From assembly GCA_051047955.1 (NCBI GenBank), contig JBPGPT010000008.1:186001-250000 (forward strand): a DNA stretch of 64,000 bases, read 5' to 3'. A program made the translations under genes and the position numbers. The DNA comes from Cystobasidiomycetes sp. EMM_F5. Taxonomy: Eukaryota. The notes beneath the pieces are model-generated. The model was given only the letters and a program-made list of their open reading frames with translations, was not told the DNA's origin and searched no databases. Shown here one piece after another: positions 21,727-64,000 of the stretch (within the stretch, counting starts at the first letter, position 1; the number at the start of each line of letters is the position of its first letter).

Positions 21727-23290
21727 ATGGATTTCTCGCGTCGGAGCATAACTCCAACGCCAGCCATGATGGGCGTCAACAACCCAATGATGAACGGGCA
21801 TGGCGGGAACGGGAACCATCACTTCAGCAATGGCGGGCTTGGAAACGGTATGGGGAGTCACCAGCAGTTCCCGACGGGCTCCAGCAACATTGCTGGCCAT
21901 ATGATGCCGCCAGACTGGGGCTCTCCGCTGTTCCACGGAGCAACAGAGGTGCGCTGCGTATTTGTAATGGTCTTTCAGCAGACGCGGGCTGACTTGTTGC
22001 TCGTTGATAACTTTTTGGGAACGTAAAGGGCAAGGTGGAAGCCTTTGTCGCCAGCTCGTCGGGAATGCAGATGCTGCTGCGAGATGCCTACGGACACAGA
22101 GTTATCGCCCCAATGATAATCAACGCAAACAGCCTGCCCGCCAGCATTGCTGGGTCTTCTGTTGGGTCCAGCCTCGGCGGAATCAGGCCAACATCAACGC
22201 TAGGCAGGCCAAACGAGGAAACGCTCAGAAGACGGAGAGAAGCTAGTATTTCTCTCATGGACGAGATGGACGGCGGTGGGGCAGGACCTCGTAGCGGTCC
22301 AATGAGGAATGGCCGGCACAACTATCTCGGAGACCGTATACAACCCCCCTTAGCGGACCGCATCTCTCCCAGACAGAACGGCGATGCGTGGGGAAATGGA
22401 ACGGGCAACGGCAATATGGGAAATGGGTGGAGTGAGATGAACAACCGCAATGGGGGAGGTCCTTATCAGAACGGATTCTCAGATAACGACGGCTTTGCTC
22501 GCCCGTCATCTCGCATGTCACAGCGCGGTGGAATGGAGCGCCCCAACTTTCGGCCTTACTCTGTCAACTCTGTGCGGTCAAATGGCACGGGACTTAACGG
22601 TAATACTCGCCCCTCACGGGATTCTTACTATCCTATATACAAGAAGGACGGCCATTCTGTCGGTCGAGACCGGTACGTTTGTGGCATGTGCTGCCAACAA
22701 AGTAGCTGACTCTCTGCGTGACAGCATACCCCCGGAAGAGAAGAGACCGTTCTATACTCCAGCTCCCAAAGGGGAAGTCGCTGGGATTCTCGTCAAGAAC
22801 TTGAGTCATGGCACTACAGTTCAAGATGCACAGGTAGATATTGAAGACGGCAAATTGGAGGTAACAAAGACTAACGAAGTTATCTCCAGGTCTGCTTTGC
22901 TGAATTTGCTCCCGTCCAATCTTGCGAGATTGTCGACCGTTCGTCAGACGGGACATTCTCCGTACTCGTAGTCTACAGCGACAAGGATGATGCGGATCGT
23001 GCCACTCAGGCATTACAGTGTGTGACATTGTGCACGTCCCCTGGCGTTGGCTGATCAAATTTAATCGCAGCGGTATCTCCGCAGACGGTCTGATTCTACA
23101 AGTCCTCAATGTAAATCCCCGCATGATTGACCGTCCAAATAAGGACAGCAGTGATCCTGAATTGAGGATAGGTTATCTGCCAAAGCAGATCAAGCAGAAG
23201 GATGCTCCAGACAGCCTCCCAGCTGAGCGCGCTGGCAGCGTTGTTATGGCTGACCGGGATCAGAACATGGTGGAACAGACGCCTTCGTAA
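21727..23290 (+). CDS. RRM-domain protein with an N/G/M-rich low-complexity N-terminus
   Basis: Spliced: ILVKNLSHGTTVQDAQ|VCFAEFAPVQSCEIVDRSSDGTFSVLVVYSDKDDADRATQALH|GISADGLILQV, an RRM pattern. 4 introns. Confidence 0.75.
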
Positions 23291-51785: not shown

Positions 51786-54296
51786 ATGTCGGGCTGGGAG
51801 TCTCTCGACGAACCCAGCAGGGCAGAGACGACGACAGGCAGCGGATGGGGCGAACACCTTCACAGCAGTACATCGTATCAGCAGTCATCTACCTTTCCAT
51901 ACTCCAATCCCCCATCTCCCTCGAATCATCCGATCCAGCGTGATTTTGTTCACAGCAGTGCTCGTAACACTTCAGACAATGTCAAACAAGGCGGCCATGA
52001 AATGTCGACAGGCTGGAAAGGTATACTTTCTCCATCTACAGAACGTGCAGCCTCCTCATCTCCTCGTGTGGAATCGTTCAACAAAAGTGGAGATCCTTCG
52101 GGATGGGGCGCACTGACCCCCTCGTCGAATCACAATCCCGCAAGAACGGATGTAGGGCCATCAACGCGTAGCAACATTGAAAGAGACACTACGGGTGTAT
52201 CTGCTGGGTACATGTCCCAGATCCCGCCCTTCTCGAACGGCAGAACCATGTCTATTGCAGGACGGGCAAGCATGGGGCAAGCCAATTCGGTCAGTCTTTG
52301 TCGCAATACTGTTGAATTTGCAGTCTCAGCTGAGTATGAACTGAAACTGACAGTCGCAAGCTGGTACATTTGCCTCAACTTCTCGGTCACGCGTCCATAC
52401 CCTTCTCGAAGAAGACAGTGGAGATCCACCTCAAACATCCACATCAACCCATCGAGCTCCAGCTAGTGTATCCAGCGGGCATCCAAACGAGCATCGTGTG
52501 GATGAGAGGAATGGCGAGCGAGACTTCAACACTGGATCTCGCTGCATAAGTGTAAGCCGGTCGTCCTGCATATGACCATACGACGGCGGAATCTAATGCT
52601 GCTGTCTAATACAACAGCGCGAGCCTTCTGACTCCAACATCAATACCAAACAAGAGCAAGACTTTATCAAAGTGAGTCACTTTCGACCTCGCTGAGGTTG
52701 TGCGGAAGGTCTGTGCTCACGAATTCTCTTGGGTCCGTTATTTCCATCAAAGTCGTATGCTGCTGGCGATCCTACCGAATCAGGCAGACAATCTGGACGC
52801 ATAGACTCTGGATGGATCGATGGTGTACGTTCTCGTTTGAAGATCTCTGTCCAGGGTACTCCGCACGGCCTGACCAACAACCACTATCTCTCACAGTCTG
52901 ATATCCGATCGCTTACTTCTCGTGTCCATGATGATGACTACATCAAGCCTACTTCTACTGTACATAGAGAAGGACGAATCATCATCGATGGTCTAGGTAC
53001 CGTACGTCTTTTCGCGTGCCTACTTCGCCAAAGAACCACTCTGACATGTGCCTTGTCATGCGATAGAGAGGTCCTCCTTCTCCAGAAGGATTACGAGGTG
53101 TCTCTGCCTCAAAATGGGCAGAGCCTACTGACGCCAACGGGAACGGCAATGGGTATGGTAACGGGAGACCAACTTCCCGCTCACCTAACTTTAGTCGAGC
53201 ACTCCATCATGCCGCTCCACCTGCGTCTGCATCAGGCTGGGGCGGTATGGAAGATATTACGAACGATTTGCAAAAGACGACACTGAGAGACACCGAACTG
53301 GATGATCGCAAGCAGACCGCCCCAGCCGCAAGAGGTGGATGGGGAGATTTAGATACCCAATCTCCATCTCAGGAAGCTCGAAGTGGAAGCGCACATCCTA
53401 TTGCAGCTAATGCTCCTACTTCTGGGTCTGGATGGGCAGCATTAGACTCAAACAAACCCCCACACCATCCTTCACACTCTGCTTCAAATTATTCTGAACC
53501 CGTCGATGCTGCCGCGAACAGCGGAGGATGGGGCGCTCTTTCCAACCCATCCACTTCTATTCAAACCCCAAATGATAACTTCCGTAACGGTTGGCATGGT
53601 ACCGACAGTACAAATGCCAATGGATGGGGCGCTCTAGACAGCCGTGGACCAAACAATGCTAGGTCTACGTATAGCGAGAGAGACGAAGGTCAGGGATCAG
53701 GGTATGGACTATCGAATGGAGGGTACGGAAATGGGTATGGAAACGGTTCTGGATCGAACGGGTACAGTAATTCAGAACGCCCTCGTGACAATGGATGGGG
53801 TTCACGGTCATCGGCAAACGAAGCAATGCAAGGGGCCAACGGTCATGGAAGTGGAGCATCCCGTGATAGTGGGTGGGGCGGAGCAGCTCGCAGTACTGCA
53901 GGAGCAGGCGCAGGCTACGGAGGAAGTTACCAGGATGCCCCGACCGACAGACCGAGAGATAATGGCTGGGGTTTGAGAGCAGGCGGTGCATCGAGTTCTG
54001 GGGCATACGGATGCGACAATGGCCCTTCTCGTTCTCTTGGCGGAGGCTACGGAGGAGGCAGCTACGGAGGGTATGCAAGTAGTGTAGGCGGTGGAATGGG
54101 CACCGGTGTCAACCAGATACCACTTCGCGACAACCGCTGGGCTCGAAATGCGCAATCTGGTCAGGGACAGTTTCAAGGTCATTTTCAGGGACAAGGTCAA
54201 GGACAAGGACAAGGCTACGGTAGCGTGAATGGATACTACAACGACGGACGGGGCGCTGTACGTCAGCCTGCTCACGTTCCAGGCAGCGGGTGGTGA
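51786..54296 (+). CDS. Intrinsically disordered GW-repeat protein (candidate Argonaute-hook protein)
   Basis: About 5 GT-AG introns join ORFs 51786-, 52729- and 53247-54296. About 15 GW dipeptides in S/G/N-rich sequence. No globular domain seen. Confidence 0.75.
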
Positions 54297-54499: not shown

Positions 54500-55815
54500 A
54501 TGAGCGAGCGATTCCTGAGCTCTGGCGTGTCCGAGGTCGAGTTTACCAAGAAGCACATTGCTGGGCTGAGCAGCGTGCCCGGTGGAGCAGAGTACAACCG
54601 CGACTTCAGCCTCGACGCTGGGGAGCGCGACCGCAAGATTCCAGTGGTCCAGGCGGGGCATATACTATGGATTATAATGTAAAGTATACGCTAATCTGGT
54701 TGTGATTTTCAAAACAGATTCCAGTAGCCAGACCGCCAGATGTCGGGTCTTCGTTGTCGCCAGCCTCAGCTTCAGGCCTCACTCTGACGGTCAAGTCGCT
54801 CAAACCACCGCTCTCGTTCAGCATACTCTGCAGCCCAACAGCGTCCATCGCATCCCTCAAGGCTCAGCTCCACGGCGAAAACAGCGCCAGAGGTGCCCCA
54901 GAACCAGAACGGCAGCGCTGGCTGTACAAGGGCAAGGCGATGGCAGACGAGCGGCTGTTGAAGGAGTACGATGGACTCAAGGACGGCGAGACTGTCCATC
55001 TCGCAATCAAGGCCGCCGTAGAGGCAGCCCCGGTACCGTCGTCGTCGACGCCGTCGTCAGCGTCAACGCCCACGCCCACGCCTGCGACAAACACCGCCAA
55101 CAATGCCAAACCCAAAGCGCCATTCAGTTTCACACCTTCTACCCTATCCTCCGAGATGCCGCCCCCAGCCGCATCACGTACACGGACGACCTCGTCGACC
55201 TCCCTTTCTAGCAGCGTCCGAGGGGCTGGAGCGCACTCTCGCGTACCCAGTATCACTCTCACCACAGACATGAGCAACTTCAACCACCTCGCAGGTAATG
55301 CGACTTCTCCGATTGACGGAAACTTCAGTCCAGGTGTACCCATGGCCACTTCTCCCGTTCCTGCCTACTCGCCAGACATTGCACACAGCGGCGCAACCGG
55401 TGCAAGTGGAGGCGTGTCGGGCGCAAGTACTCCTCGATCCACTCCAGGTACACCGTCAGGAATAGGTCGCCAGAAATCGCCAAGCATCTCTGTCCAGCTC
55501 GATCTAGACAATATCGAAATGATGAATCCCGTTTCATCGGATCGTAAACATCCCGTCGGTCTTTCTACAAAGTTTATCGGGACAATGAAGGACCCGCAAA
55601 CGTGGAGTGATGTGCTCTCATTCCTCGACGGCAAGTTCAAAGCGGAAAAGGCGGCAGGTGATGCACCCGGTATCCTAGACGGAAACGACGACTATGCAGA
55701 AGAAACAAAACAGGTATTCGAGACGTGGTTGGGCGCAAGCAAGGACTGGATGACAGCATCAGATATCGCTAGAATTCGTGATAGGACTGGTGTCTGGGCA
55801 ATGGGCGGTCGGTAG
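54500..55815 (+). CDS. Get5/Mdy2 (UBL4A)-like ubiquitin-like domain protein
   Basis: N-terminal EVEFTKKHIAGLSSVP..EYNRDF, UBL domain (LTVKSLKP...SIASLKAQL...QRWLYKGKAMADERLLKEY...TVHLAIK), C-terminal WSDVLSFLDGKF...VFETW dimerisation-like helices. Confidence 0.72.
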
Positions 55816-56178: not shown

Positions 56179-59100
56179 CTACAACTCGTCCTTCCTGTGC
56201 TCCTCGCTTGTAACTGATTGTTGAGCAGTCGTTTCCACCTTGTGGCCGCCGTCCCCTTCTTCGACAAACTCCTTTTGCTGCATGCGCGCCTGCTCTAACT
56301 GACTTGCTTCATCAGCAAAAGCATCCGCAGCGACATCACTGCCATTCATGGTTGATGCATCTCGTTCAGAATTGCTCTCCCTCGCTTGCGCACTGATTCG
56401 AGCGGCAAGGTCTGCAATCTCCTTATCGTATACTGACCACTCAGGAATCAGCCTCTTTGCCCTTGCTAGCTTTGGTTCGTGCGTCTTTGGATTATTGCAT
56501 AGGTCAATCGTCTTTGCTGTGGCTAGGCTCTCGTCGGAGCACCACGTCTCGCACCAAAGCCATGACCTATCGAGCGTGTGAATGGGGATTTGGTGCTGCA
56601 TGTTGTTTGGCAGGTCCTGGTCGAGGTTGGAGAGTGAATGAGGGTCGGCAGAGAGTGCTTGATACTGCCCTCGTAATCGGTCCCCAGCGGCCATTTGCCG
56701 GAATCGGTCGAGGTCAATCACATACAGTGCACTGATGTGATACGGTCGCCCGCGTAGGTGATCCCGCCAATAACCCTGCTTCCAGAATCGGAAACCTTCC
56801 ATCTCCTCCCTGTCGTCTCCCATTGGCGTGTATGCGTACGGCGCACCCTTCAAATCCATGTTGACCAACTCCTGGAGGTCGGTGCGCACTATTTGGTCAG
56901 AGTCGACAAAGATGACCCTATTGAGCTCGAGGGGAAAGAGGACGTCTAGAAAGAGGATTTTGTATCTGTCGCACATACATCATGCTAAGTATGACTTCCA
57001 CCGATTTGACAGAAGACACTTACCCCCAAATCGTTCTTTGCTTTTCTTTTTGACTACGCAACCAATGCGGCCATGTATAAGTAATAAGCTCATATTCAAA
57101 GTTGTATTCGCGCGCCAGCTGCGGAATGAATGCCTTGAAGGAAGGCGAAAGGAAATTGTTGATAAACCAAAATTTCACGGTGGAATTGGTGTGACGCAAA
57201 ACGGAGAGGATCATAATCATGGCCATGCGCTCATAGAGTAGCCCGGATGCCACCGTGAAGATGTTGATGTCCGCTCCTTTCTTGCTAGGCACTATCGACT
57301 GGGCGGGAATGTCGGTTGATTTGCCAAAGAAGCTTTGAAACCTGCAAGGTATGCACACTCAGCATCAACTCCCTATGGTGCTACAGCGTCGGATCCGCTG
57401 ACTTTTGCTTCAGAATTTCTGCCACCTTAGGGCCACGGGCTTGCGAAGTAGACCCCTCGTCAGTGTCCTCGTCCAGCAAATCGATGCCGTCCATTCCTGG
57501 TTTACGTTTGAAGACAGGAAAGATGGTGGCGCCTTCGAGTGTTGTGAGCGCAATCTCATCGCTACCATGATGACCAACGCTCTCGACCTCAAACACTTCC
57601 GAGGACCTGCCTTCTCGGATTGTCATATTCCACAAGCCTGGATTCGCTTTGAACTGATGATATCCAAGATTAGCCATGACGAGTGTGTCTGTAGTGTCTT
57701 TTCCATCGCTCAAGAGGAGCTGGAGACCGCGAGGCGGTCCACCAGTCTTACTCTCTTTGCCGTGACCTTCGACAATGATGTTTGATACTTCAAACAAGGC
57801 ATCGATTCCTCGCTCCCTGGCTGAAGACTTGAGATCCGATAAGCGAATATTGTCCAAATCGTGGATGGATTCTTTAGGGAATGTTTGCCAGGCTGATTGG
57901 GTATCCAGCGCGAGTGTGAGCAGAGTGGACTGAGGAACACCCATAAACTCGACGGTTGGCGTGATCTCGCTTCTACGGACAGTATGACGCTTAATCAGCT
58001 GCACATGTTAGTGCGTAGACGCTTCGCATACCCTGACGCGTCAAATGACATTTCATGAGGCATGTTGTAACGATAAAATCGCTTCAAGGGTAGCTCTTTC
58101 CGCTTGGTCAACGGGTTGAACCATAAGCGGATGGAGACTGAGCTCATCAAGGACACGGTCTACATCTTGTCTAATTAGCTGAGACGGACGGCGATGCACA
58201 ACAGACTCACCTCTAATACCGCAGACCAGGTTTGAGCAGCTTCACTGAGCGGATCAAGAATGACGCCAAATTGCAGAATGGCGGTACTCTCATCACCAAT
58301 CACTATTGAACTGTTTTTTTTAAGGCTTGGAGTCAATTCCCTCACGTAGATTGTAGAAGCATGGGCTCACGTGTAGTTTCCTGGAACGAGATTGTAATCC
58401 ATCGACCTACGCATGTTCGGCCTGGCTAGCAGGCTTCTGGCAGGTCCCGGAGAATACGCGAGCGAGATGACGGAGGTCAATTTCGCAAAGAGATCGCTGC
58501 GATACTTACATCAGCAAATCGTTCTCGCCATGACGCCGAGAACTCAATACCTTTGCACATCAGCCTGGGACAGCACCGCTGAGATGGCTTCTTGGGCGGC
58601 ACTCAGGCGCTGAGCGGACTCATACGCAATCAAGGACTCGAGCTCATCGGTGTTAAAAGCATTATCCGGCAAAGGACCCAAGACCTAGAGTAGACTCTAG
58701 AATTAGTCCGGCAGCGGCTACCCTACATGCTACGTACTCTGCCATTGATGACAATGCCATTGTCACCAGCTTTAAGCTTGATGAAGTTCGCTAATGCGTT
58801 GCCTTGGCGTCCAAATTTGTACCACTCTCCAGCAGACAGTGCGCTACCGTCATATTCTGCGTCTAGGCTGTCCCACGAAGTCGCCCACTGCAAAGGCGGA
58901 GGCCTCTTGAAAGGCGTATCCTCGGCGAAGACATCCGAAGGATTGTGAATAAGGCAAATGCGGACAGAGACACCGTGAGACTGATACTGTGATGATTAGT
59001 TTGAGAGAAACATTCTTCTACATGGGACTGGCTGCGCAACGTACTACCACTTTTCTTGCTGCAGTCGGTAGTTGTACCAAAGCTGGGGATTTGAGGTCGG

Positions 59101-61852
59101 CCAGTATCCATATCGATACCTTGGCGTCATCAACTGCATCTGCCATACTTGTCAGATGCAATGCGAATACTAGCGGGCCCTGACTCACTGCCAACACTTT
59201 CGCATTTTACAATCTTATCCACTTCCGCGATATTGACGAAGCGCAGCGGATTGGCATCAACACCTGGAAAAACCCAAGCACTTCTACGGGAATAGGTCGT
59301 CGGCAGATTGTAGAAGTAGTGGTCCACATCGTCGTCATCAAACAAGCCTCCGGAGTGGATCTGCTGTTGCAGGTGCTGCATTTGCGCCGACATTGCATTT
59401 TGCAGATTCTGCCGATATTCCTCATCCAGGATAAAGAGCTTGCCATTTACGAAGAAATGCCCGAGAGTGTCACTGTCTGGCTTATAGAGCAGTCCCAGCC
59501 TCTTGCTATAAGCATACGCTGATTCCAGCCGGCGACTGAGCTGCACAGCAATGTTTGCGTGACCACTGCTGGAGGATGTGCCCAGTATATCGGAGACAGA
59601 CAGTAATAGCGACGGCGTGTGAGACGGCTCAATACCATCATCAATCTTGACTCGTAATTTTTTGTTCCACTCGCGTGCGATTTTGGAGTAAGCAGTTGTA
59701 ACGAGAGGGATTGTTAACTCCTCTTTCTCATTACTGCCAAGCTCCCTGCTGAATGCTAGCGCCGTCGTCCTCCCTGCATGATCAACGATATACCATATGA
59801 GTTTAGCTACCGTTGTGCCTAGATGATCATATATACAGTCAGCAGTCGGACTTCACAAAGACTCGCAGGTACTTGCCAACGGTATCTTCGCTCGTGCCTG
59901 TTGGCTCAGGTAAAGCAGGAATCATGCCGAAGCGTATAGGCAAGCCTCTTGATATGAATTGGCCAATTTCGCCAGCAAGTAGCGAGTGTGTGTCACGCTT
60001 ATCGAGGCGCAAGACGAGATTCACATTGATGAGATTTCTTTTCACTTGCGGTGTCTGACCGGGATACATTGGCTGTAACAGTGCTGACAGGCTGGACGGC
60101 CAATGTCGATATCGAGAATCGCGAGCGAGATCATTCCAGTATAGGATGGGTCCGACAACGGTCTTGCCGTCAATCTCCTCGGCACCCTCTGACAGGGACG
60201 CAATAGCAGCGACTTCTATCCTGTCTGATGCATCAAACATTTCCGTTGTGGCAGACTGTCCAGGTCTGGCTGTTCGAGGATCAGTGGCCGCATCTGCATT
60301 ACCGACAGCTGGATGTGTCAGTATATCAATAGCCATCTTTGGTGTGATATCAACGTCCTTCTCGGACTTGTCGGACGAACGACCTGCAGAAATGATACTT
60401 TCGACGAGTTGTCGCTCTTTACGCATCAATCTCAAGAAAGTGAAGGGTTTCAGATCCGCTTCTTGTAATTGCTGACCATTCATGATGAATAAATTCCTGC
60501 CACCATCAATGATGGTAGATTGGGTTTCTTTCAATTCTGATATGATTCCAGGCGAAACGGCCGTGACCCAAGAAGTTGCAAGAGAATGTGCATATTTCGG
60601 AAAGTCACCAGTAAGGCGCCGCAGGGTTTGCAGAGGATTTGCCGAGTGCATGACTAGATGAGTTGCCCGAAGACCGATATCTGCAAAGACAAGCTCAGCA
60701 ACATGACAGATTCGAATCAAAAAGGGCAAGACGCACCTGCCAATTGTGACTCTTTGAGCTGCACCATCTCTTGGACAGAAACATCAAAGATACTTGCATA
60801 CTCGCCGTCTTGCCGAGGAGAATCCCGTACAAGTCGTTCGCTGCTACTTTCGGCATCTGTCTCTACACCATCAGACGCTGCGGTATCTCTATCATCGATA
60901 GTAAGGTAGTCGACCCTCTTTAGGTCCAGCGCTGCGCCGAAGCCCGAGAGAGCCAGCTTCTGCCTCCTCATATACTGAGAAGGCTTCCATCGAAGTATAT
61001 ATCGTACTTTGCCTTCATGCGCTGATTTTGATAGGATCCCGTGCAGATTTGCGAAATTAGCGGTGCTCAGATCCCCGTATAGAATTGCAACTGGCGCAGC
61101 AGCGACATAGTGTGGAAAGACATTATCAAAGTCGTAGATCTTGGATGCGGGTGTATCTCTGCCAAAAGTGTCAGACTACGTTTTACCAGCACAGCTGAAA
61201 GACTTACGAAAGGGGTCTCTCTACAGCTAGCAGTAGCGACTGCGCTGATTCATACCTGATGCCCTGATGTATCACATAGCTTTCACCGGAGTGATCACTG
61301 TCGTCTGTATCCGGCAAGTCTTCAAAGTGCCGCCTGTATAATTGATAGTGCGTCTGAATACGTGGACTTGCTTCTCGTAACGCCAGGGCCAGCTTGAGGG
61401 CGTCGATGCTTCCGTTGTGGATGTGCAGGGTATCTGCTGAATAGTGCAGTAGGTCGAGTGTCCGTGAATACGTCTGTTGGTCTGAGAGACCTGCAGCCTT
61501 AGGCTGTATGGGGGATATTGACGGAGGGGCGTGTATGATTGTATCGATGAAGGGAAAGAATGAGCGAGGGGATTCGATGGAAAGAGTTTCTCTGTGGTAT
61601 CGAGGTCAGTCATCAGCTAATAGGGGATTTCAGCAATACTTGCAATATCTGTACGAGCAGAGGTGCAGCCTCCCACGAAGCTTGAATCCTCGCTCGAATT
61701 GGCGGAGAACGCGAGTCGGGAGAAGTGTTTGGGTCATGGTTTTGGATGTTGTGGGAGTGTGGGGATGTTGCTGAGACTGGATTGCACAGGGTGACTGCGG
61801 CGGCAGTGACCAGGCACCACCATGGCCCATATGACCGCGACCGTGCACGCAT
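56179..61852 (-). CDS. UGGT: UDP-glucose:glycoprotein glucosyltransferase
   Basis: Signal peptide, [74 protein letters not shown]-terminal KDEL. Many introns. Confidence 0.97.
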
Positions 61853-62054
61853 CTTGCGAGGAGTGATCCAGCAGAATAGTCAGCGCGTGTTGCTGTTAAT
61901 GAACCATTAGTAAAATGTTAGTCCATCAGTGCGTCCATTACTAGACTACTAAACAATCCAAATCTGAAATGCACCCAGCTCGCTGAATGGACTTGGACTT
62001 GTTTCCGACAGCCCAACCTGGTCGCAAATCTGAAGACGGCACAGCGCAGTGGAC

Positions 62055-62077
62055 ACGACGACGACGACGACGACGAC
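62055..62077. repeat. (ACG)7 microsatellite in the UGGT/COP1 divergent spacer
   Basis: acgacgacgacgacgacgacgac. Confidence 0.8.
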
Positions 62078-62210
62078 AGCGGGCAACGCGACCAGGCTGC
62101 GCTAGGCTGATAATTCAAACACAAAAGACTGGCAATTGGACCCGTATTCCGCCCAGACGCGACCGAGGTATCCCCATCCAAAAGACAACGCAAAGAGCTG
62201 GTCGCCCATC

Positions 62211-64000
62211 ATGCAGATGCTCACAAAGGTGCGCACAAGGACCGATATCGCTCCCTCGTATCGCGCAGTCTCGCCGACTGACTCGGGTTTGTGCGAGCAG
62301 TTTGAGTCCAAATCCAACAGGGTCAAGGGTATAGCTATGCACAGCAAGCAGCCCCTCCTCGCAGCCTCACTCCACAATGGAAACGTCCAGCTGTGGAATT
62401 ATCAGATGGGCACCCTCGTGGGACGGCTGGATGAGCACGACGGTACGCCTTTTGGGGGTTCGAATGTGGACCCGCAATGGTCAAGGATGTGCGAAGTAAT
62501 TGTACTGAATGAGTGATTCTCAACAGGACCCGTCCGCGGAATAGCCTTCCACCCAACTCGCGACCTCCTCGTGACGGGAGGAGACGACTACAAAGTCCGA
62601 GTTTGGGGTGAATACGCGCAAACGACATGAAGCGTCTGGCTTCCTCACTGACGCGCTGTCACTCTACGCACCACAGACACCAAAGTTCAGAACCGGAAAT
62701 GCCTATACACGCTGCACGGCCACCTCGACTATGTCCGGTCATGCCAATTTCACCACGAGATGCCGTGGATTGTGCGTATTTGCGATAGCATACTTTCCTT
62801 CTTGGACGCGCAGGCTAACCTGTTCGCACTCTGTACAGCTATCCGCTTCGGATGACCAGACCATCCGCATATGGTCATTCTCATCCAGGCAATGCATAGC
62901 CATCCTTACTGGACACAACCACTACATTATGTGTGCACAATTCCACCCAAAAGATGATCTGATCGTATCTGCTTCAATGGACTCGACTGTCCGTGTGTGG
63001 GACATTTCCGGCAAGTCTGACAGTCAAAGTCTATGATTGTACTCTGGCTGATCCATGTTTTGCTGTGATATCAGGCCTTCGCAAAAAGATGACGACTGCT
63101 CAGCCAATGTCGTTTGAAGAGCAGATGCAGCGGGCCAACCAAGGCCAAGCTGATCTGTTTGGCAACACAGACGCAGTCGTAAAGTATGTGTTGGAAGGGC
63201 ACGACAGAGGCGTAAACTGGGCGGCATTCCACCCGACACTGCCGTTGATTGTTTCGTGCGGAGATGACAGACAAGTCAAGCTATGGCGAATGTCAGAGAC
63301 GAAAGCCTGGGAAGTGGATACCTGTCGTGGTCATTTCAACAAGTAAGGCACCGTATAGCATTGATGAGCCAGATGCACTGACGACGTTGTGCGTCGCAGC
63401 GTCTCAGCCGCGCTGTTTCACCCGAAACATGAGCTCATCCTGTCAGTTGCCGAGGACAAGACTATAAGAGTATGGGACATGGGCAAGCGTACATCAGTCC
63501 AGACTTTCCGTCGGGAAAACGACAGGTTCTGGGTGCTAACAGCTCATCCGGAATTGAACCTGTTTGCTGCTGGACACGACAGCGGATTGATCGTCTTCAA
63601 GCTCGACAGGGAACGACCTGCTTTCAATTTACACGGCAACATGCTCTTTTACGTCAGAGACAAGCATGTTCGCGTCAATGATCTCAACACTGGTACAGAT
63701 TCGTCGGTCGTTAGCGTTCGTAAGCTTGGGAATCAATTTACAAGCCCACGGACGCTATCATACAATCCAGCAGAGAAGGCCGTCATTGTCACGTCTGTGA
63801 GTTGTGACAGTGACACCGTCTGCAGACGGCGCGACACTGACGAAGCTCATGCCTACAGCCGTCTGACAATGGCCTGTACGAGGTTGTATCTCTGCCACGC
63901 GACACGGCTTCAGGCGAGGTCCGAGATTCGACCATCGATGGCAAACGCGGTTCCGGATCATCTGCTTTGTTCGTTGCGCGTAACCGGTTCGCAGTCCTTG
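62211..64000 (+). CDS. COP1: Coatomer subunit alpha, 5' part, runs off the window
   Basis: [92 protein letters not shown]. Confidence 0.97.

Follow-up and report, generated by a model that had tools for sequence, protein, structure and literature searches.

The 64,000-base stretch of DNA analysed here (the window) contains, between an ATG at 51786 and the end of a stop codon at 54296 on the + strand, a six-exon gene whose 720-aa product is probably, though by no means certainly, a lineage-specific, disordered, stand-alone multivalent Argonaute hook that also serves as a granule scaffold. The product carries 17 tryptophans, 15 of them in GW and nine GWG in all, and every motif given in a preliminary description of the sequence (a start in MSGW, an end in SGW-stop, about 15 GW, and the variants SKWA and NRWA) is present in the model. 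The span and spliced product proposed there hold as well, since the 51786-54296 model is open and identical to the NCBI-annotated hypothetical protein P0001 (Cystobasidiomycete), an independent gene call that phmmer recovered with exon 6 as query. The six-exon splicing rests on these two concordant predictions; just one of the splice combinations tried opens the 720-aa frame, and its five introns have GT-AG ends, measure 64-81 nt and are all in phase 0. Because P0001 is labelled as a Cystobasidiomycete protein, the host is a Pucciniomycotina yeast, not closely related to Cryptococcus. The gene is present in one copy, all six of the matches in its own genome being its own exons, and it is flanked by a divergent 5'-nucleotidase gene and a ubiquitin-like gene, with UGGT further out. 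The ubiquitin-like domain gene (window 54500-55815, + strand; weak Get5_N match) starts about 200 bases past the stop codon, and the UGGT gene and a WD40 gene (window 56179-63036) are divergent neighbours.

The GW-repeat feature is real and far beyond chance. Ten or more GW were reached in none of 10,000 shuffles of the whole protein and 15 GW in none of 5,000 shuffles by 30-aa blocks (maximum 10), while in a background of 509 six-frame ORFs of at least 150 aa, taken from 591,100 bases of this genome with non-coding frames included, 109 of 1,629 tryptophans were preceded by glycine and no ORF had more than four GW. The context of the tryptophans is also nearly fixed, with G at -1 in 15/17 and one of S, N, G or T at -2 of every tryptophan. 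Genome-wide, a codon pattern for [S/N/D/G]-G-W-G has 204 matches, six of them within 2.2 kb here; the pattern picks up six of the nine GWG of this gene and misses TCN serine and GGR glycine. The other same-strand clusters within 2.5 kb number five, with two matches each, and no GWG cluster denser than that of this gene was thus found. Synonymous codons vary between the repeats, which fits selection at the protein level rather than a recent DNA repeat.

Both ends of the chain are GW motifs. Exon 1 (51786..52289, aa 1-168) holds the start codon and four GW (W4, W21, W77 and W107), of which W4, W77 and W107 match the pattern W-x-x-L/I. It is followed by a spacer rich in S, T and charged residues and free of tryptophan (exon 2, 52354..52551, aa 169-234), by a short exon with the sole helix of a low-confidence model, at aa 245-251 (exon 3, 52618..52671, aa 235-252), by an exon with a single GW, W273 (exon 4, 52753..52824, aa 253-276), and by one of the most hydrophobic stretches, which matches no family (exon 5, 52897..53001, aa 277-311). 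Exon 6 (53067..54296, aa 312-720 and the stop) carries the remaining ten GW, the KWA and RWA motifs, the G/S/N/Y/Q tail and the SGW-stop end. The motifs fall into three types. Class 1, [SGN]GW[GA]xL[DST], forms a block at 53223..53639 (aa 364-502) with copies of the type [SGN]GW-[GA]-x-L-[DS] at W403, W434, W466 and W498; the block also contains W369 and W487, so that the spacing of its tryptophans is 34, 31, 32, 21 and 11 aa, and the same motif type is present in exon 1. Class 2 is R-D-[NS]-G-W-G, found three times at 53778..53981 (aa 549-616), and the third type, [VL]-x-x-[SN]-[KR]-W-A, occurs twice without the preceding glycine, at 53100..53120 (W328) and 54123..54143 (W669). A low-complexity region at 53691..54233 (aa 520-700), with 55 G, 24 S, 14 N, 13 Q and 11 Y in 181 aa and eight [GS]YG units, is a candidate for a condensate-forming part.

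That the protein has no folded domain, as had been proposed, agrees with its failure to match any Pfam or PDB entry up to E 10 and with a negative FoldIndex in 24 of 27 windows; a single-sequence AlphaFold2 model gave a pLDDT of 35, weak evidence in a run without an alignment. Searches for relatives returned the protein itself or nothing. Exon 6 found none among 7,997 candidate proteins of 224-716 aa at E 0.01 and, with phmmer, nothing but P0001 among 1.84 billion representatives, and aa 225-340 recovered only itself among 141 candidates; these large-database queries covered exon 6 and aa 225-340, and low complexity lowers their sensitivity. The ESM Atlas gave no usable match, and none of 75 pattern matches in metagenome contigs and none of six in viral contigs was confirmed. 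Some relatives must nevertheless have been sampled, since the same protein collection holds Argonautes 70-74% identical to those of the host. Of 557 UGGT-anchored loci, the 80 examined for synteny contained no ubiquitin-like neighbour, nucleotidase or GW gene (tblastn, E 0.01) and no ORF with more than four GW, these loci being from distant fungi and apparently too distant to inform; in 13 of the 80, all of them metagenome loci (e.g., L112, L141, L145 and L150-L153), UGGT is preceded by a WD40 match on the other strand. The orphan status of the protein fits the fast divergence documented for the W-rich regions of GW182 (PMC4615383).

For scoring as an Ago hook, which the preliminary description had called for, we wrote our own implementation of the Karlowski et al. 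domain score (dos; PMC2910046, Table 1), without its ics filter. The best WG/GW domain (53505..54095, aa 458-654, six GW) scores 75.5 half-bits without that filter, on a published scale on which the cut-off is 6.99, the 'medium' class spans 25-150 and SDE3 reaches 74.5, and the highest score in the background of 509 ORFs is 28.6. None of 1,000 shuffles of the protein reached 75.5, yet their best scores had a median of 27.8 and a maximum of 73.0, so that a large share of the score comes from composition; of the 509 background ORFs, 50 exceed the cut-off, and the authors of the matrix themselves warn of glycine-rich false positives (PMC2910046). Isolated class 1 repeats score just 8-13 each because leucine at +3 is the most disfavoured residue in the matrix, which points to a motif more specific than a generic hook. 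The background ORF with the best score (window 22011-22709, + strand) contains a short G/N-rich stretch with one WG and one GW and has no Pfam match.

The host is equipped for RNAi. Its genome has Piwi matches at three loci, RdRP matches at two, and RNase III matches at a tandem (Dicer-like) locus and one more. The two RdRP loci share one contig (C1, ~568k and ~1,077k), and two of the Argonautes are separated by about 59 kb on another (C177, ~713k and ~772k). In human AGO2 the key residues of the tryptophan pockets are reported to be K660 and L694 (pocket 1), F653 (pocket 2) and R688 (pocket 3) (bioRxiv 2025.10.18.683247), and pocket 3, not pocket 2, is described as distinctly conserved in fungi (PMC12477606). 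At the corresponding positions, the Argonaute of contig C199 has K660, I694, Y698 and Y654 in pocket 1, K688 in pocket 3, and Y653, and the C177 copy at ~713k has K660, F653 and K688. The copy at ~772k (L001:1453-1803, + strand) retains K688 and carries A660 and R654 where the human protein has K660 and Y654; it is a natural variant of pocket 1 whose catalytic D and H motifs are apparently intact. The alignment includes two Kwoniella Argonautes that agree with the C199 copy in K660, K688 and Y698, and among its 58 rows K660 is found in 26 and K or R at 688 in 50. By their sequences, the pockets of the host Argonautes are compatible with GW binding. A prediction of the complex between aa 456-508 and the PIWI region of P0003, a stand-in for the host Argonaute that is 74% identical to it over the exon searched, scored 0.16 and 0.21 against a mark of 0.34, in runs made without an alignment and without controls, and is counted neither for nor against binding. 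The A660 of one of the three Argonautes provides this genome with a natural test of specificity, since the change of K to A at 660 is reported to weaken GW binding elsewhere.

Proteins of this compositional class are already known in basidiomycetes, so the earlier statement that no GW182 equivalent had been characterised there is contradicted by Gwo1 and Gwc1 of Cryptococcus (PMC4778953; PMC6643885; PMC10402008). For C. neoformans, a published table gives GWO1 (CNAG_00520) as 'GW182-like' and GWC1 (CNAG_06486) as 'GW/WG protein', and both are lost or truncated in the RNAi-deficient C. deuterogattii (PMC4778953); GWO1 is also missing from one C. tetragattii genome (PMC8022950). Ago1 and Gwo1 constitute the P-body complex PRSC (PMC6643885), deletion of gwo1 abolishes sex-induced silencing (0/49 silenced progeny against 16/36 in the wild type; PMC10402008), and Gwc1 is needed for siRNA production and has orthologues in Cryptococcus, Kwoniella, Saitozyma, Tremella and Bullera (PMC11185503). 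A further mention of CNAG_00520 (PMC12345238) was set aside as an apparent slip, the passages around it dealing with CNAG_05520. Our protein resembles Gwo1 in being a basidiomycete protein with GGW motifs (a Gwo1 peptide is given in the supplement of PMC5017699), but Gwo1 is a P-body protein of 1642 aa with a zinc knuckle (PMC5017699), whereas the protein described here has 720 aa, two Cys and no CCHC; it is not of the Gwo1-type architecture, as far as the published description of Gwo1 goes. The two Gwo1 motifs contained in the fragments available stand in an acidic, proline-rich context and lack L at +3. Gwc1 is comparable as a basidiomycete 'GW/WG protein', in its case one of the RNAi pathway, and differs in having orthologues across the Tremellales, none of which our protein matched; as to homology with either, the database searches with exon 6 and aa 225-340 returned just the protein itself or nothing. 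Within the host, no same-strand GW cluster was seen beside 25 zf-CCHC matches (flanks of at most 1.5 kb, wider for 12 regions) that would indicate a Gwo1-type gene. The portions of the literature on GW182 in basidiomycetes and Pucciniomycotina that we consulted name no GW protein of Pucciniomycotina.

Outside the fungi, GW182/TNRC6 offers disordered W-rich regions and a Q-containing low-complexity stretch as points of likeness, but our protein has no UBA or RRM (no Pfam family up to E 10) and no PAM2-like pattern, and membership in that family fails; the family itself is described as animal-specific, with none detected in fungi (PMC4615383). Also comparable are AIN-1/2 of C. elegans, described as functional analogues of GW182 without UBA or RRM (PMC4615383), Arabidopsis WGRP1, an analogue that likewise lacks UBA and RRM, and the plant platforms NRPE1, SPT5L and SDE3, in all of which GW/WG repeats stand among G, S and N with only W and G conserved, and the dos of our protein lies in the range of SDE3. 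The plant WG/GW platforms are mostly tails on folded proteins, whereas here the whole chain is apparently unfolded and the repeats have the L at +3 that the plant matrix penalises. The sequence context of W623 and W634 of TNRC6B was not found in the literature searched.

Three features of the Argonaute-hook compositional class occur together: GW above chance, G/S/N-rich disorder with a significant dos, and an AGO-clade host Argonaute with pocket residues. The proposal of an Argonaute hook made from the sequence alone is plausible, and has gained indirect support from the motif statistics, the dos, the RNAi genes of the host and the residues that the C199 Argonaute has in pockets 1 and 3; binding as such we infer. 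What is observed is the gene model, the enrichment of GW motifs, the failure to detect a domain, and the RNAi genes and pocket residues of the host; on this basis a mechanism can be envisaged in which the protein, if expressed, would do the work of Gwo1 in Cryptococcus or of the N-terminal half of GW182. The GW tryptophans, being exposed, would enter the PIWI-domain tryptophan pockets of one or more host Argonautes, the C199 copy being the likeliest partner, and the many GW copies would bind several Argonaute-siRNA complexes together. The Y/G/N/Q-rich C-terminal part might then pull these complexes into an RNA granule of the cytoplasm, for instance a P-body, and the two KWA/RWA motifs may bring in a further factor there. 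Against this reading stand the indirect nature of all the evidence, the inflation of the score by composition, the variability of the pocket residues, with A660 in the C177 copy at ~772k, the failure of the searches to find an orthologue, the lack of an RNAi domain in any of the neighbouring genes examined, and a report that Trp-dependent association can arise from aromatic residues in disordered regions with no docking in pockets.

In an unlikely but serious alternative, the protein is an RNA-granule or mRNA-decay scaffold independent of Argonaute, its tryptophans being condensate stickers or ligands of pockets on NOT9/NOT1 or PAN3. The long G/S/N/Y/Q low-complexity region and the two non-GW WA motifs would suit such a scaffold, and in GW182 the W-rich regions have PAN3, NOT1 and NOT9 as further partners (PMC4615383). 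A pure sticker role would leave the fixed context of the tryptophans at -2 and -1 unexplained, however, and no PAM2-like or eIF4E-binding pattern is found in the protein.

The leucine of W-x-x-L is the feature least explained by a plain hook, and it opens a further reading, improbable on balance, in which the protein is a multivalent Atg8-binding adaptor (a selective-autophagy receptor), class 1 consists of Atg8-interacting W-x-x-L motifs, and the glycine is incidental. Seven of the 17 tryptophans, in a disordered chain, match W-x-x-[LIV], a number reached in one of 10,000 shuffles, and thereby conform to the core of Atg8-interacting motifs (AIM/LIR), W/F/Y-x-x-L/I/V (PMC8666691); in four of the seven, D stands at +4. 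The same source notes, however, that AIMs prefer acidic surroundings and that the bare core is prone to false positives (PMC8666691). Eight GW motifs, moreover, have no L/I. The N-terminal SGWESL matches the stricter xLIR pattern, but the other six of the seven fail it, with G, A or K after the tryptophan. It is just as possible that the +3 leucine is part of a longer motif for binding Argonaute. Class 1 G-W-x-x-L-D might even be read twice, GW by the Argonaute pockets and W-x-x-L by Atg8, which would make the protein a stand-alone receptor for collecting RISC in granules and passing it on to autophagy. This receptor would operate in a Pucciniomycotina yeast where no gene of the Gwo1 type was seen, and would be selective among three Argonautes that differ in pocket 1; we regard this combination as a long shot.

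It is very unlikely that the motifs serve membrane traffic or another folded partner that reads short W motifs, such as the coat and endocytic appendage domains. Membrane-traffic adaptors are typically disordered chains in which extended W motifs are repeated, and the protein is built in this way, but it has no NPF, DPW or FG motifs and, unlike the W-motif ORFs of loci L086 and L185 of the same genome, no acidic context upstream of its tryptophans. Least probable of all, to the point of being nearly dismissed, is an error in part of the six-exon model or a lack of expression (exon 6 alone, for instance, being the gene), because although no homologue came from the exon 6, aa 225-340, Atlas, metagenome or viral searches and intron 3 does not match the branch-site pattern used, the one splice combination opening the frame equals the independent NCBI model, exons 1 and 6 have a motif type in common, and the introns are short (64-81 nt) with GT-AG ends.

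The stand-alone Argonaute hook remains our preferred reading, and the protein is most likely a new, apparently unrelated example of a class already known in basidiomycetes. If it binds Argonaute, fungal Ago-hook adaptors would extend from Cryptococcus to the Pucciniomycotina, the group of the rusts and Microbotryum, and this one would be an independently built hook without folded domains. Because the class is known, basidiomycetes included, the surprise would be moderate, and high only if the double reading with Atg8 were true.

Other genes with W motifs are present in the same genome. A second W-repeat gene (L186:2718-4075, + strand; G000:C146, ~208,200-209,570) has a tail of GGWG, DWG, AWG and GWG with a dos of 40.9, and is a candidate second Argonaute partner. 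Its N-terminal part is probably folded and by eye recalls an NYN/PIN-type nuclease; an exon-wise Pfam search of the gene gave no match, and a search of the genome for NYN returned no scored candidates. The two ORFs with acidic W motifs mentioned above (L086:6759-7784, + strand, G000:C1; L185:3589-4092, + strand, G000:C90) have no significant Pfam match. They lie on different contigs and are otherwise dissimilar, but share an exact 10-residue stretch, DDGWGIASLS, which sits among those motifs.
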